From an uncultured Ignavibacteriales bacterium (GTDB taxonomy: Bacteria; Bacteroidota; Ignavibacteria; Ignavibacteriales; Ignavibacteriaceae), in assembly GCA_963714405.1 (NCBI GenBank), contig CAVQOH010000001.1:208254-272253 (forward strand): a DNA stretch of 64,000 nucleotides, in the 5' to 3' direction. Below, piece after piece: positions 15,001 to 24,000 of the stretch. A program made the position numbers. Position 1 is the stretch's first letter, and each line of letters opens with the position of its first letter.

Positions 15001-18000
15001 TGTGTTCCGTCATCAAAAAGCGGTATAGTCAGTGTACTATCACTATTTGGCCAGCCACCTCCAGGCCATTGTAGTGGTGATGTACCACCAGCCAGAATCA
15101 CAGAATTAACCATCGGGAATGGTTGTCCGCTAACAGATGAAACAGCACCATCTGTATCAACCGTAAAAAGTATTGTGGTTGGCTGATTTGTTACTGTCTG
15201 TAATGTACCATCATTAAATGCTCTTGATATAAGAACTTCACCAGCATTGTATTCATCTTGAGTTAATACATGAATTTTATTAGGATCACCTTCCCATGTA
15301 TTTGGTGTGTAGAAGAACTTATAATTTACGATGGTGTCTCCTACTTCAACCTGCAATATCGTATCAGGATTCTCACTTATATAGTAATTTGGATCACCTG
15401 GATCAACTATAAAATCGCTTCTTCCCCACCCATTAAAATCTCCCCTCGCTGCAACGGTATCACCTGGTGTGAATCTGCCAGAGAGAATTTCAATTTCCAT
15501 ATTACACTCCCAGTTTACCAATATATCTGTTGGTTGCGCAAATGTAATACCTGTAGCTGCAATGATGAATAAAGTAAAAAGTAATTTATTCATTTATTAC
15601 TCCCTATTTTGTTAATGAATTATTTAATTAGCCGAATTAATCTGCAATAAAATATAGTTATAATTTTCAATATAATATAGTTAAATATGGTTAAAAATTG
15701 ATGCCTACGGAAAAATGCTGAGTATTATCCAAAATTCCAAAATTCTGGTATGCATAGTCAAAACGTATTCCCAAATCCGGATTAAAATTATAATTTATAC
15801 CAACTCCAGCGGTTAAACCTTCTTCAGAATTATCTAGAAATAAGGATTTATACCCGACCCTGAATGATACGGTATTATAAAATATATATTCTGCTCCCAC
15901 ATTAACCGATTCGTTATTATCATTTGGATGAAGAGCATCAGCAGCAATTGTGAATCTGTGATCATCAATATCAAACAAATCCATTGCTAAACCAATTTTA
16001 AAAGTAAGTGGTAGTGGAAATTCATCGGTTTGCAGCTTTGCTAAAATCTGATTGTTATTACCTTCGCTATTTGGATCAATATCATATTGAACCAACAAAT
16101 CTTTTCCATCCATAGTCATTCCTGATCCAAAATTTGTTATGGTTGCTCCAATTCTTAATCCATAAATATCGGAATGAAAAAGCACCCCTAGATCAATCGC
16201 TACTGAACTTGCGGATGAATTCCAAATTTTCTGTTGGATATACTTAACATTTCCTCCTATCGAGAATCTATCGGTTAAATTATATGCATAGGTAAGTCCC
16301 AGGGACATATCACTTGCCGTAAAAAACTGTCCTGTTCCATCTTGCTCAGCCAACGTTGTTACTTCAATATCTCCATAATCTAAATAGGTTACACTCATTC
16401 CAATTGTTCCAACACCACCCAGATTGAGCATTACACCTGCCCAGTTATAATTTATATCGGCAAACCACTTTGAATGTGAAAACATTGCTTCGTTTGTTTC
16501 AGTTCTGGATGCACCTGCCGGATTCCAATAAAGTGAACTAACATCATTTGCGGTTGCTACAAATGTACCACCCATTGAAACTGCTCGCGGACCGATGGCA
16601 ATATTTAAAAATGGTGCAGCAGATGAACCAATTTTAGATTGGCTGAATAAACAACCGATTGAAAAAATGAATATCAATAAAAACTTTTTCATAAAATTTC
16701 TCCGCTATTTAATTAGGGCTAATTTCCCTATTTTATTTCCAATATTTGGTGCTTCTACTACGTAAACATATATTCCATAAGCTACATCAATATTTTCTTC
16801 ACTTCTTAAGTTCCAATAAACATCGCCAACAAATAAATTTTCACTGTAAAGAGTTTTAACTAATTCACCTCTGACAGTAAAAATTGATATTTTTGATCCT
16901 GGTGGAATGTATGTAAACCTTACTTCTCTTTCACCTCTTCCACTGGTTTGAAAGCTTAACAATCTTTCTTCACCTGCATGCGTCACAACATAAGGATTAG
17001 GAACAACTTTTATTCTATCCAGCTCATCTTTAGCTAAGCTGTTATCGATTAAAGCTCCTTCTACGGTAAATGTAAAACTATCCTGTTGATTAAAGGGCTT
17101 TAGTGTTGAAATTTTAAAACTACCGGTTTCTTCCAAAGGTTGACCAAATGTATCATATCTTATATCAATTCTCCATGTTCTCCAATCTTCACCATTGATG
17201 TCTTCCCAAAACCATATGCTATATGTTGGTGTGAGTGTTCCCCTCACTCCATAAGTAAAATCAACATATTCATCTTTAGAAAGATTTTTAACCCTGAATT
17301 TTACAGGTTCGGCAGGAAATTGATGTCTTTCTCTTGGTCCGATAGTATCTGCTTTTGAAGTATCAACGATAGAATCGAAAAATTCTATCAAATAATCATT
17401 TGGAAATCTTACTCCATTTTTTTCAGGGAAAATCGCTGTAAGCGGAGTTATTGTGTATTCTGGTTCCGGATTTGTTACAATATCTCTGAACCCAGTATCG
17501 AGCGTATCAATCATTATAGCATCATTAAATAGTTGAGGTCTAAACCCATGTCTTATTGGTGTTAATCCTGAAAATACATCATCCTTATCAACTAAAATAT
17601 CAAATTCAGCCATATAGTAATCACTTGTTACGGCTATTGGTGAACCATTTACATAAATTGTATCACTTCCTTGCGGCAGAGCAATTGAATCATTAGGATT
17701 TACTAAATAAGTTTCGTCTGCCAAAGGTATGTAAACAGTATCTGGCGTCTGAAGATCAAGTAATGACCAGTTAGCAGTAACATCGGTTAATCCTGTATCT
17801 TCAAAAACAATTTGATACCTGAATCCATCTAATATTTCTGAATCATCAATAATTTCAATTGCTGCATCGCCAGTCCCAAAAAAGTTTTCTGATTTTTCTA
17901 GTGTATTTAAATAAGCATTGGAATAACCTGCAGGTCTTCTTCCGGGAGTAATAAAGCCTGTGTTGTCATCAAGTATAACTGCCCCTGTATTTGTTCTAAA

Positions 18001-21000: not shown

Positions 21001-24000
21001 TATCTGCTGCTGAATCCCAATCTCTCCTTTAACTGTTGTTTGAGGTTTAAGATCAGTGTTACCAAATAATGCAGCATTACCGGAATTAACACCAAGTTTG
21101 AATTGAGGATTTTCATAAAGAAAAGTGTAACGCGGTAGCTGCTGAAAATGACCGTATGAAAAATGTATTACACCTCTATCTGAGATGGGAAATGCTAAAC
21201 CAATCCGAGGACTTATTTGTGTTTTAGCGGTTGCCTCTTTATACCAATATTGCTCTCTATCGCTAACTGTTTTAGTCGTTTCACCAAGATCCTGCACACC
21301 GTTACCATTTTGATCATCAAAACGATTATTCGGTTTAAGCGGATTGAAAATGCTTGGATCAGTAGGATCATTTAAAACAACTCCATCCGGTTGAAAATAA
21401 TCAAACCTTATTCCTAAATTAAATATGAGATTGAATGCTTCAAATTTGGATTGAACATAGCCCGAAGCTTCAATCGGTTCATGAAAATAGGTATCAAAAT
21501 CTGTAGTGTTTTTTGAAGGTATTGATACATTGTAAGGTGTAACTCTCTGCCCATTTTCATCAACCATTGGGACAAGGTTTATTTTTTCATAATACATTTT
21601 ATGAATTGCAAAATTACCACCAAATTGAAGATTAATTTCCTGATTTAATTGTGTTGCCCAATCAAGTTTTGTCCCGTAAGTTCCGGTATTTCTTGTAAAT
21701 CGATCACTATCACTACCACTATCTGTCCCGCCAATTCCAAAACTATATGGCGGAGTAATTACAGTTGATTTATCTTCGTAATTAGTAGGTTTTGTTGGAT
21801 TACCTGTATAAATGTTCTCAAATAGATAATGATGGTAATCTTTGAAAGTATAACTTAGGTTTAATGTGTAATAACTATTGGAAGAAATTGCATGGTTAAA
21901 AGCTAAAATATTTGTATATGATTTGTTAAAGCGATTTAGGTTATTGTCGGGTGTAAGCTTATTAAAATGATTATAATCATGATATTCCCTTCTATCAAGA
22001 ATATAATTATAGCTTACTTTTAAACCTTGTAAAAGTCGATATGTTAATTTTGCCTGTCCATAAATATTCTCATTATCATTCATTGAGACATATGAACCAT
22101 CCCCATTCTGTGAAATTATAAAATCTTGAGTTATTGGATCTTGATAGGCTCTATCACTAATTAAATATGTTCTTTTACCGTAAAGAGATCCAGAATTAAA
22201 ATAGTATCGACCGTTTATATAAAAGAACAGATCATCTCTTAAAATCGGGCCACTAATACTTCCTTCAAAGTTTCTTATTGCAACAGGATTAATATCATCA
22301 ATGTTATTGTAAATATCAGTTCTATCGGAAACGAAATCACCTGTGAATGCCTGAATATTAAAATTAAAATCGTTATTACCATCTTTAGTAACAAGATTTA
22401 CAACTCCGGATTGTGCCTGCCCATATTCTGCATTAAAAGCACCACTAATAACCTGTAGTTCCTGTACCGCATTTTGATTTACATTTACAAGAGCACTGCC
22501 GTCATAAACATCAGTTACCGGCACACCATCAATCTGGTAAGCTACCTGGTTACTTCTTCCACCGCGGATGTGAATTTCTCCACCCGAAGAAACTACAATA
22601 CCTGCCTGTAATTGTAATAGATCACTAATATTTGTAACCGGAAGCTGAGATATAACATCATCACCAAGTATTGAAGTGCTTGAGGTAAGATCTTTCCTGA
22701 TTAAATCCCTAGTGGCAACCACAATTACTTCTTCGCCAAGTTCAACACTTGCTTCAGTAAGTTCAAAATTAACAGTTGTTGTTAAATCTATAGAAACCTG
22801 AACCTGCTGAATTGATACCGCATTATAACCAATAGCTGAGGCTTTAACTGTATAAATTCCCGGAGTAACATTTAGTATTGAGTAATACCCATCTATATCT
22901 GAAGCTGCACCCAAACTTGTACCCATGATTATTATATTTACAAATGGAAGTGGTTCACCTGTTAAAGCATCGGTAATCCTACCTGCCACTTTACCCTTTG
23001 TTCCTGCAAAATTAATTGTATGGGTTGCTAAGAATATGGAAAGGGAAAACAATAAAAATCTTTTCATAATATTATCCTTCTAATACAAAAAGCGTTTAAT
23101 CAAAAACTGAAATTTTCAATTATTAATATAAAGTATTTAGATGTTAATTATTTCAAATATACCAGTAAAAACTTACAATAATAAAACGATGACGGCAGAA
23201 AATAGCTAAACTAAATCTGGAAATAATTTAGGAAAAGATTTTGCTAAATGGAAGTATAAGCCATCTAAATTGTTTCTTTTCAGCAGCATTGCGACTGTAT
23301 TTAGATCTGTATTATAATAATTTATTTAATTCAATAAAAAATGAAATTAATGCAAATTTTATATAAAATTGCAGTATATAAAATTTCGAACAATATATTC
23401 TTAGAATGCAGAAAAGTGTACTCAATTAAAAAAATATCAGAGCAAAAATTATCAAAGCTGTCTGATGCCGAAAAATTTACAATAATAAAAACTATTGATA
23501 TGCACACTGCTGGAGAGCCATTAAGAATTATTTATGAGGGTATGTCTGAAATTAAAGGAGTCACCATACTCGATAAGAGAAAATACTTGAAGGAAAATTT
23601 AGACCATTTAAGGACTGCTTTAATGTTTGAGCCACGCGGTCATGCAGATATGTATGGTGCTGTTATTACAGAACCTGAGAATAAAGGATCAGATTTTGGT
23701 GTATTATTTATGCATAATGAGGGCTACAGTACAATGTGTGGTCATGGCATAATAGCACTTACAAAAGCTCTTGTTCAAACAGGTATGGTTGATGTAAAAG
23801 AACCACTAACAAAAATTAAATTTGATACACCTGCAGGATTGGTAACATCCTTCGCAAATGTCAAAAATGGCAAAGTAGAATCGGTTTATTTTTATAATGT
23901 TCCCTCTTTTGTTTTTAAAACTGATAAGCAAATTGCAGTAAGCGGAATCGGGAAGGTAAAATTTGATATCGCTTTTGGGGGAGCATTCTATGCTTTTGTA

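Follow-up and report, generated by a model that had tools for sequence, protein, structure and literature searches.

Gene organisation of the locus

The subject of this analysis is a group of three adjacent genes in a 64,000-nucleotide stretch of DNA from an uncultured Ignavibacteriales bacterium (GenBank assembly GCA_963714405.1, contig CAVQOH010000001.1, positions 208,254 to 272,253 of the forward strand), referred to below as the window. The genes encode a TonB-dependent transporter (TBDT), a giant secreted protein of a family without a model and a barrel protein of the PorV/PorQ family (Table 1). An earlier note on this DNA had described three minus-strand genes separated by 18 and 12 nt, and the open reading frames (ORFs) were recovered at exactly these coordinates, with gaps at positions 20242-20259 and 16693-16704. 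The unit has at least four genes, not three, as a fourth gene at 14469-15593 lies on the same strand and is followed by a hairpin. This hairpin, at 14416-14442, was the sole strong terminator-like site on the minus strand when the region 14300-23450 was scanned. Upstream of the TBDT gene a Bacteroidetes-type -7-like motif was tentatively assigned; a sigma-70 promoter scan gave no enrichment over shuffled sequences. The window has a G+C content of about 32%. Rfam models searched over the whole window returned nothing, and thus no riboswitch was found in front of the TBDT gene.

Conservation of the three-gene module

To analyze if the trio is kept in relatives, a scan of species-representative genomes yielded 80 Ignavibacteria/Melioribacteraceae loci, which were counted as testable where the contig flank sufficed. 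A TBDT gene directly upstream and a PorV-like gene directly downstream of the giant gene were found in every testable locus of this set. Among the Ignavibacteria loci the TBDTs were 55-85% and the barrels 60-87% identical. The same order was obtained in relatives whose identity had dropped to 42%, 39% and 35%, and named relatives outside the group belong to Calditrichia/Calditrichota, candidate division KSB1 and Fidelibacterota/Marinimicrobia (Marinisomatota). A metagenome set added 80 diverse loci with 29-55% identity in the giant protein, of which 51 were testable on both sides, and a complete trio was present in 48 of these. Two of the 48 (L106 and L109) have the order TBDT-PorV-like-giant and identical sequences of the C-terminal domain (CTD). 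The arrangement is far beyond chance, and the synteny on which the earlier note had let its proposal depend was thereby found in both sets.

The neighbours of a giant gene followed the type of its CTD. Giants with the deviant CTD of the window protein had both neighbours in all but three testable loci, and the barrel gene adjoined them in 65 of 68 testable metagenome loci, whereas giants with a canonical type IX secretion system (T9SS) CTD had neither a TBDT nor a PorV-like neighbour in any of six loci (L086, L087, L088, L090, L091 and L168). Among the comparative arguments for treating the specialised CTD, the barrel and the transporter as one set, this tracking of neighbours by CTD type is the strongest. 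In one of the six loci two canonical-CTD giants stand in tandem beside GFO_IDH_MocA and AP_endonuc_2 genes (L086:3643-10276).

Multiplied modules were found in a KSB1-type genome (GCA_964607755.1, CAZSMC010000027.1, 22573-57784; L085, L089), where four tandem modules follow each other in the order T-G-P, T-G, T-G-P and T-G (T, transporter; G, giant; P, barrel), and then a MEDS protein and a hybrid PAS-HisKA-receiver sensor kinase. The giants of this array are 59-70% and the TBDTs 54-67% identical, and the m2-m4 pair is the closest for both proteins (70% and 67%). Since the similarity ranks agree, TBDT and giant appear to duplicate and diverge as a unit, following the logic of SusC/SusD pairs; with only three TBDT pairs this co-divergence is suggestive, not statistical. 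The CTDs of the four giants are 75-84% and the two barrels 95% identical, so that the CTD-barrel pair presumably stays generic and can act in trans.

The transporter

Pfam domains identified the first gene product as a TBDT, with matches to CarbopepD_reg_2/CarboxypepD_reg (E 1.8e-18), Plug (E 7.7e-12) and OMP_b-brl_4 (E 1e-11). A signal peptide is followed by the CarboxypepD_reg-like domain (residues 27-114), a TonB-box-like segment EEVIVVATR at about residues 112-120, the plug (residues 125-221) and a large barrel, and both features that define a TBDT, namely a plug with a large beta-barrel and, as judged by motif, a TonB box N-terminal to the plug, are thus present. The segment geEVvVvAeRPl..kD.T and the plug motifs are conserved in 75 module TBDTs, including the distant ones, which also match TonB_dep_Rec_b-barrel. 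Matches to PDB sequences were confined to the plug (YncD, PqqU). The SusC/RagA model TIGR04056 gave 76 bits against a cut-off of 368, over the N-terminal residues 26-239 only. Taken together, N-terminal extension, TonB box and plug follow one another in the module TBDTs as they do in SusC, yet on these scores the module TBDTs are not members of the SusC family. No SusD-like gene was found near the TBDT gene, and the gene downstream contains neither SusD nor any other Pfam domain, in agreement with the earlier description of a CarboxypepD_reg-type receptor without such a partner.

A TBDT that is required for protein secretion has been published: Oar of Myxococcus xanthus, which is needed for secretion of PopC, is likewise composed of CarboxypepD_reg, Plug and a large barrel and is functionally tied to one secreted protein (PMC6434023). 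The module barrel could accordingly be a secretion or assembly channel for the giant, in the style of Oar-PopC or of two-partner secretion, with the PorV-like protein as private carrier, and deviant-CTD giants would then bypass the SprA translocon. The strict occurrence of one transporter per giant, kept in the tandem arrays too, also fits one exporter per cargo. It is further in line with such a role that canonical-CTD giants do without either neighbour, the general T9SS presumably serving them, and that the transporter barrel matches both PF25183 and the classical TonB_dep_Rec family. Nevertheless we regard an export channel as improbable. With 1178 residues and a predicted compact structure of several beta domains, the giant would be hard to pass through a 22-strand barrel, and its CTD shares homology and fold motifs with ordinary T9SS CTDs. 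The TBDT retains standard import-type plug and TonB-box features, and the locus context is one of nutrient use, with CBM20/48, GH13, LacI and sugar ABC (ATP-binding cassette) genes, as described below. Oar, moreover, is not known to be encoded beside its cargo or a PorV-like barrel, or to involve a CTD logic or a carbohydrate context.

The C-terminal domain of the giant and the PorV/PorQ-like barrel

The earlier note had stated that the C-terminal ~100 residues of the giant resemble, but deviate from, a T9SS CTD. Profile searches with the window sequence alone gave no support for the resemblance, as its last ~105 residues did not match Por_Secre_tail at E<=10; at family level it was borne out. 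When 44 CTDs of the family were searched singly against Pfam, CHU_C was matched by 17, FlgD_ig by 14 and Por_Secre_tail by five (best E 4.5e-4), all with weaker E-values than the canonical CTDs of the window. The CTD consensus shows the strand pattern of T9SS CTDs: it begins with VVPNPY, continues after an insertion of ~20 residues (E...GRGER) with F.HLP..CTIRIFT..G.LV.TL...W.L...DNLDVAYG.Y.YHV and ends on GKFA.IK. VVPNPY and the C-terminal GKxALIK are nearly invariant in the family, which therefore has both the PNP[FY] motif and the terminal lysine of such domains; the importance of the near-terminal lysine has been described (PMC10994853). Alignment of the CTD profile with five canonical type-A CTDs by hhalign gave a probability of 95.7% (E 9.5e-9, 65 columns), and in about 10 of ~370 full-length relatives this position is taken by a fully canonical CTD of the NYPNPF type. 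These comparisons support homology of the giant CTD to type-A T9SS CTDs (PF18962/TIGR04183); membership of the canonical family is not thereby supported.

Against all PDB sequences, the CTD profile matched only the CTDs of PorZ (5m11_A, E 0.0037) and PorU (6za2_A, E 0.0056). These are the two T9SS proteins reported to retain an uncleaved CTD, PorZ being held on the surface by PorQ and PorU by PorV (PMC5562754). The insertion of the module CTD (giant residues ~1084-1106) is nearly invariant and at the same time has the lowest predicted local distance difference test (pLDDT) values of the domain (64-74), which would suit a loop that gains order upon binding a partner.

The 333-residue product of the third gene reached 244 bits with the PorV/PorQ family model NF033709 (cut-off 90), as the earlier assignment had anticipated, and stayed below the equivalog cut-offs for PorQ (NF033711, 126 against 220 bits) and PorV (NF033710, 87 against 250 bits). 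Four distant module barrels gave 198-216 bits with NF033709, and in all five barrels tested PorQ was the best equivalog, below its cut-off (PorQ 83-126 bits, PorV 75-87 bits). In the PDB, the N-terminal half matched Flavobacterium johnsoniae PorV (6h3i_F, E 4e-10). On these model scores the module barrel, of the 14-strand type, is a distinct subgroup of the PorV/PorQ family and closer to PorQ than to PorV. The proposal that it is a private PorV paralogue for one cargo is strengthened by the tracking of the barrel by CTD type, by CTD and barrel being the most conserved parts of the tandem paralogues, and by the PorZ and PorU relatives of the CTD.

The CTD has its best PDB and NCBIfam matches in PorZ and PorU, and the barrel has its best equivalog in PorQ; this would also be expected if giant and barrel were general T9SS machinery, a lineage-specific attachment pair of the PorZ/PorQ type merely co-located with a TBDT. 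In Ignavibacteria all three proteins are moreover single-copy and very conserved (55-87% identity). We consider this explanation highly improbable, because the matches are confined to the CTD, with template modelling (TM) scores of the whole giant model to PorZ of 0.09-0.13, and because KSB1-type genomes hold several tandem paralogues, unlike core machinery. In addition, a TBDT always accompanies the giant, CBM20/48 and GH13 genes often do so, and a separate PorU-like gene lies near one module. That gene encodes a Peptidase_C25 protein (locus L081). The giant was also compared with both T9SS components directly: identity with PorU was rejected, as it contains no C25 domain and the C25 protein near the related module is a separate one, and identity of the passenger with PorZ was rejected on the TM scores to 5m11, the likeness being limited to the CTD and the beta-propellers of PorZ being absent.

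The giant protein

The family of the giant is large. More than 2,000 relatives were found at E<=1e-5 in a collection clustered at 90%, and an exhaustive search at E<=1e-3 gave 2,718 clusters at 50% identity. The best 120 relatives are full-length, 62-84% identical, all named 'hypothetical' and from Ignavibacteria-type metagenome-assembled genomes; the only other database name seen in the family was 'T9SS type A sorting domain-containing protein', for one relative. No Pfam family was detected in the giant, even when it was scanned in four pieces at E<=10, NCBIfam gave just a faint match to the PorZ C-terminus (E 0.028), a PDB search with the single sequence found no match, and no lipobox is present. 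A signal peptide and an acid-rich region of DxDxDG type at residues ~396-512 were seen, as was the absence of a recognisable family, so that the earlier description of this protein stands on these points. By gene order and family searches the giant thus appears to be an obligate partner of the TBDT, from a family without a Pfam or NCBIfam model or a PDB structure. Its signal peptide (20185-20241, minus strand) ends in ...SLFAQ, and the family consensus has AQ at this place. This end may fit the Bacteroidetes 'Q-rule', by which cleavage by signal peptidase I exposes an N-terminal glutamine; the rule is not valid across the whole Fibrobacteres-Chlorobi-Bacteroidetes (FCB) group (PMC5837995).

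An AlphaFold2 model of the whole giant, built with 60 diverse homologues, was almost all beta (pLDDT 86.6, predicted TM score (pTM) 0.77) and was divided into a conserved N-terminal core, a fibronectin type III (FN3)-like domain, two beta-sandwich domains and the CTD (Table 1). The core was also modelled alone, with full-length homologues aligned to the query fragment (pLDDT 90.3, pTM 0.89), and consists of a beta-supersandwich, a small beta insert at ~311-395, the acid-rich loop region and an alpha/beta closing segment. Foldseek searches of the core against the PDB gave nothing below E 1e-3; the weak matches were N-terminal supersandwich domains of GH149, GH116, GH94, PL26, aldose epimerase and dextran dextrinase. 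Because of this, the modelled fold of the core would be essentially new, with a faint carbohydrate flavour. For the whole model PorZ was ranked first (E 1.8e-7), with the low TM scores given above, and the other matches were generic immunoglobulin/FN3 arrays. The FN3-like domain has a weak profile match to the Fn3-like 3mpc_A, and its motif is conserved in the family consensus. Mean pairwise identity among 35 Ignavibacteria orthologues was lowest in residues 771-1070 (48%), which hold few invariant columns, intermediate in the body (66%) and highest in the CTD (81%).

Gene neighbourhood

Neighbouring genes were clustered over 91 diverse loci with flanks of 7-10 kb. A CBM_20/CBM_48 protein with Por_Secre_tail directly follows the barrel in 38 of the 91, and in about half of the Ignavibacteria loci. 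The fourth gene of the window belongs here (Por_Secre_tail E 1.7e-10; hidden Markov model (HMM) of the downstream-neighbour family E 4e-99), and a representative of its family scored above cut-off for both carbohydrate-binding modules (CBM_20 38.7 bits, CBM_48 29.7 bits). LacI regulators and GH13 alpha-amylases (glycoside hydrolase family 13) were each found in 13 of the 91 loci, together with sugar ABC permeases, binding proteins, MalK-like ATPases and TrmB regulators around the modules. A parvulin-type peptidyl-prolyl isomerase (PPIase) immediately precedes the TBDT gene in 26 loci; this placement, on the same strand, is that of other phyla, and the PPIase may help to assemble the module. 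Genes are typically ordered LacI-GH13-PPI-T-G-P-CBM, then GDSL or SBP-perm-perm (binding protein and two permeases). The recurrence of CBM20/48 proteins, GH13 enzymes, a regulator and an importer around the module indicates, on the family assignments, that it sits in an alpha-glucan locus of the polysaccharide utilisation locus (PUL) type. As the window neighbours belong to the same families, positions 1287-23067 can be read as an alpha-glucan utilisation locus. The transporter of the major facilitator superfamily (MFS) at one end of this region is a candidate importer of the released sugars, linked by position only.

Instead of a lid or binder, the giant could itself be a surface enzyme of a new family, such as a glycoside hydrolase, lyase or transglycosylase acting SusG-like on alpha-glucans or other glycans, with the TBDT taking up the products. 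The N-terminal core contains many invariant Asp, Glu, Trp and Arg residues, its weak fold matches are all domains of carbohydrate-active enzymes, and stand-alone canonical-CTD homologues adjoin sugar-metabolism genes (GFO_IDH_MocA, AP_endonuc_2). A representative GH13 neighbour (L112) has a signal peptide and no CTD, so that a surface depolymerase may otherwise be missing; however, the C-terminal part of the GH13 neighbour HMM matches T9SS CTDs, and some GH13 neighbours probably carry one. The matched domains are non-catalytic N-terminal supersandwich domains and the matches are weak (TM 0.2-0.3, E >= 5e-3), neither an (alpha/alpha)6 nor a TIM-barrel catalytic domain is visible in the AlphaFold2 models, and no CAZy-type Pfam match was obtained in the giant. 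Obligate 1:1 pairing with a TBDT is, furthermore, a hallmark of SusD-type partners and not of enzymes. A purely enzymatic role is therefore unlikely in our view.

Further genes of the window and of related loci were noted. The recurrent PPIases are 516-553 residues long, and one representative (L124:2495-4147) has a lipoprotein-like N-terminus. The family with GDSL/SGNH-hydrolase and tetratricopeptide repeat (TPR) domains, of which three tandem members lie in the window, occurs in 39/84 and 15/91 loci and shows extreme conservation between phyla. The second ordinary T9SS cargo of the window is a polysaccharide deacetylase (30771-32243, minus strand), which has a canonical Por_Secre_tail CTD; these two cargos, and the PorU-like C25 gene of the related locus L081, give indirect support for a T9SS in this bacterium. 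A protein with a TonB C-terminal domain (35503-36225) and a GWxTD-domain protein (43274-44560) are encoded on the minus strand. Divergent from the TBDT gene, a cluster resembling hydroxyproline/proline catabolism (23341-29837, plus strand) encodes a proline-racemase-family protein, an M24 peptidase, a proline dehydrogenase, an enzyme of the dihydrodipicolinate synthase (DHDPS) family, an EamA transporter and an S37/S28 peptidase. A link between this cluster and the module was rejected, as the proline-racemase-family gene, the only one tested, was absent from all 80 related loci.

Table 1. Coordinates of the module, its domains and the associated features in the window.
Feature	Position	Strand	Basis
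TonB-dependent transporter (TBDT; also TonB-dependent receptor, TBDR), 935 aa	20260..23067	-	ORF, Pfam/NCBIfam
Giant secreted protein, 1178 aa, unmodelled family	16705..20241	-	ORF
Giant residues 18-604, conserved N-terminal core	18430..20190	-	Densest invariant columns, AlphaFold2
Giant residues 605-770, FN3-like domain (DFEGYKIYRS motif)	17932..18429	-	AlphaFold2 secondary structure
Giant residues 771-1070, two beta-sandwich domains, most variable part	17032..17931	-	
Giant residues 1075-1178, divergent T9SS-type CTD	16708..17019	-	
PorV/PorQ-family barrel, 333 aa	15691..16692	-	ORF, NCBIfam
Fourth gene, 374-aa surface protein with CBM20/48-type repeats and canonical type-A T9SS CTD	14469..15593	-	
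Intrinsic-terminator-like hairpin (11-bp stem and T-run) after the fourth gene	14416..14442	-	
TATATTTG, Bacteroidetes-type -7-like motif ~87 nt upstream of the TBDT ATG (tentative)	23154..23161	-	Read from sequence
Three tandem membrane-anchored GDSL/SGNH-hydrolase + TPR proteins (656, 655 and 627 aa)	8577..14413	+	Pfam; HMM E ~1e-222
Parvulin-type PPIase (SurA/PpiD-like), 516 aa	6891..8441	-	Rotamase_2; neighbour HMM E 5e-64
GH13 alpha-amylase/cyclomaltodextrinase-like protein, 628 aa	2572..4458	-	Alpha-amylase E 6.6e-51 and Cyc-maltodext_N; HMM E 4e-61
MFS (MFS_2 sugar-type) inner-membrane transporter	1287..2543	-	Pfam MFS_1, MFS_2

Discussion

We propose, with a probability of roughly 60%, that the trio is the outer-membrane core of a Sus-like system for capture and import of alpha-glucans (starch, glycogen, maltodextrin) in FCB bacteria outside the classical Bacteroidia. 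This proposal is supported by gene order, family assignments, co-occurrence, co-divergence and CTD homology. Of the two roles that the earlier note had considered for the giant, that of a substrate-capture protein feeding the TBDT is favoured by the strict 1:1 pairing, the co-divergence and the alpha-glucan context. From the homologies and the locus context we infer the following route. The giant would use Sec to cross the inner membrane and, by way of its CTD, the T9SS to cross the outer one. The CTD would remain uncleaved and would stay in contact with the co-encoded PorV/PorQ-family barrel, like that of PorZ on PorQ or of PorU on PorV, and this docking would keep the giant beside the transporter. 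There it could act as a dedicated extracellular partner at the mouth of the TBDT, in the position of SusD, where it would capture the substrate and possibly also process it like SusG. The TBDT would import malto-oligosaccharides, powered by TonB. The CBM20/48 protein, with its canonical cleavable CTD, may be a SusE/F-like starch binder, and the GH13 enzymes, LacI or TrmB regulators and ABC or MFS importers around the module would complete the pathway.

Several observations weigh against this proposal. In three testable loci the barrel or both partners are absent. GH13, LacI and ABC genes were found in at most 13 of the 91 loci; the short flanks explain why only a minority of loci showed starch-related neighbours. 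The KSB1-type four-module array has no starch genes in the flanks covered, so that tandem paralogues may target other substrates. For the core of the giant, neither structure nor sequence gave a significant relative (best Foldseek E 5e-3, TM ~0.2-0.3), so that the giant may be a binder or an enzyme. Finally, the canonical CTD of the neighbouring CBM20/48 protein is likewise more conserved than its own body, and conservation of the giant CTD is for that reason no proof of retention; we dropped this argument as uninformative. Both an export channel and a general T9SS attachment pair are disfavoured by the nutrient context, the multi-copy arrays, the folded size of the giant and a PorZ/PorU likeness that does not extend beyond the CTD.

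In Bacteroides, the Sus system combines SusC/SusD with SusE, SusF and SusG, and SusC/D-type PULs are organised in the same manner. The module resembles Sus in having a TBDT with a CarboxypepD_reg-like extension before TonB box and plug, an obligate 1:1 adjacent gene for an extracellular partner, CBM20/48 starch binders, GH13 enzymes and a regulator of its own; some genomes also contain multiplied paralogues, and a hybrid sensor kinase lies beside the tandem array. It differs from Sus in its TBDT, which at 76 vs 368 bits falls far short of the SusC/RagA cut-off, and in the partner, which belongs to an unmodelled all-beta family of 1100-1300 residues without a lipobox and is not a SusD-like TPR lipoprotein. 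Delivery and anchoring, moreover, appear to proceed via a T9SS-type CTD and a PorV/PorQ-family barrel instead of lipidation.

This mode of attachment would be akin to that of the PorZ-PorQ and PorU-PorV pairs of Porphyromonas gingivalis, in which a large secreted protein sits on a barrel of this family via an uncleaved CTD (PMC5562754). Unlike in these pairs, the module passenger has neither beta-propellers nor a C25 peptidase, and the module pair is genetically tied to a TBDT and carbohydrate-use genes and can be multi-copy; the conserved ~20-residue insertion also sets its CTD apart from canonical ones. Type-B CTD cargo with PorP/SprF-like barrels (SprB-SprF, PG1035-PorP; PMC9143113) is comparable in its specialised CTD class, a cognate barrel gene adjoining the cargo and non-covalent anchoring, and CHU_C was the most frequent single-sequence Pfam match of the giant CTDs (17/44). 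However, the module barrel is of the FadL-like PorV/PorQ type and not PorP/SprF, its CTD aligns best with type-A domains, and type-B systems contain no TBDT. Outer-membrane transporters with a large extracellular partner are also represented by BtuB-BtuG and XusA-XusB, and the BamG platform illustrates that extracellular proteins can be attached to a 14-strand barrel of the FadL/PorV-like kind (PMC12578637). BtuG and XusB differ in being surface lipoproteins of other folds, without a CTD and not encoded with a PorV-family barrel. A description of the module itself was not found in the literature searched, the Caldithrix genome paper included, in keeping with the remark in the earlier note that no function had been described for such a trio. 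Taken singly the components are familiar, since glycan loci centred on a TBDT and retained CTDs on PorV-family barrels are both known; the combination and the partner family are new.

SusC/SusD pairs explain glycan foraging by Bacteroidia and rely on surface lipoproteins. Sister phyla of the FCB group are abundant in sediments, soils, bioreactors and the ocean, and we know of no account of how they equip their many TBDTs with extracellular partners. The module would be a concrete answer: a large unmodelled family, a specialised T9SS-type domain and a private PorQ-like barrel. Tentatively, and at somewhat less than even odds, we suggest that non-Bacteroidia FCB bacteria (Ignavibacteria, Calditrichota, KSB1, Marinisomatota) may use it as an alternative to SusC/SusD, a three-protein machine coupling T9SS sorting to TonB-dependent import, in which a giant partner of new fold, held permanently on a PorQ-like barrel by its uncleaved CTD, caps or feeds a glycan TBDT. 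The stand-alone canonical-CTD homologues might then be free-living ancestors or derivatives. If our proposal is true, PorV-family barrels and retained CTDs are used beyond the T9SS attachment complex, the giant offers a new fold for structural and biochemical study, and the module would provide a genomic marker for loci of alpha-glucan, and probably other glycan, uptake in uncultured FCB lineages.

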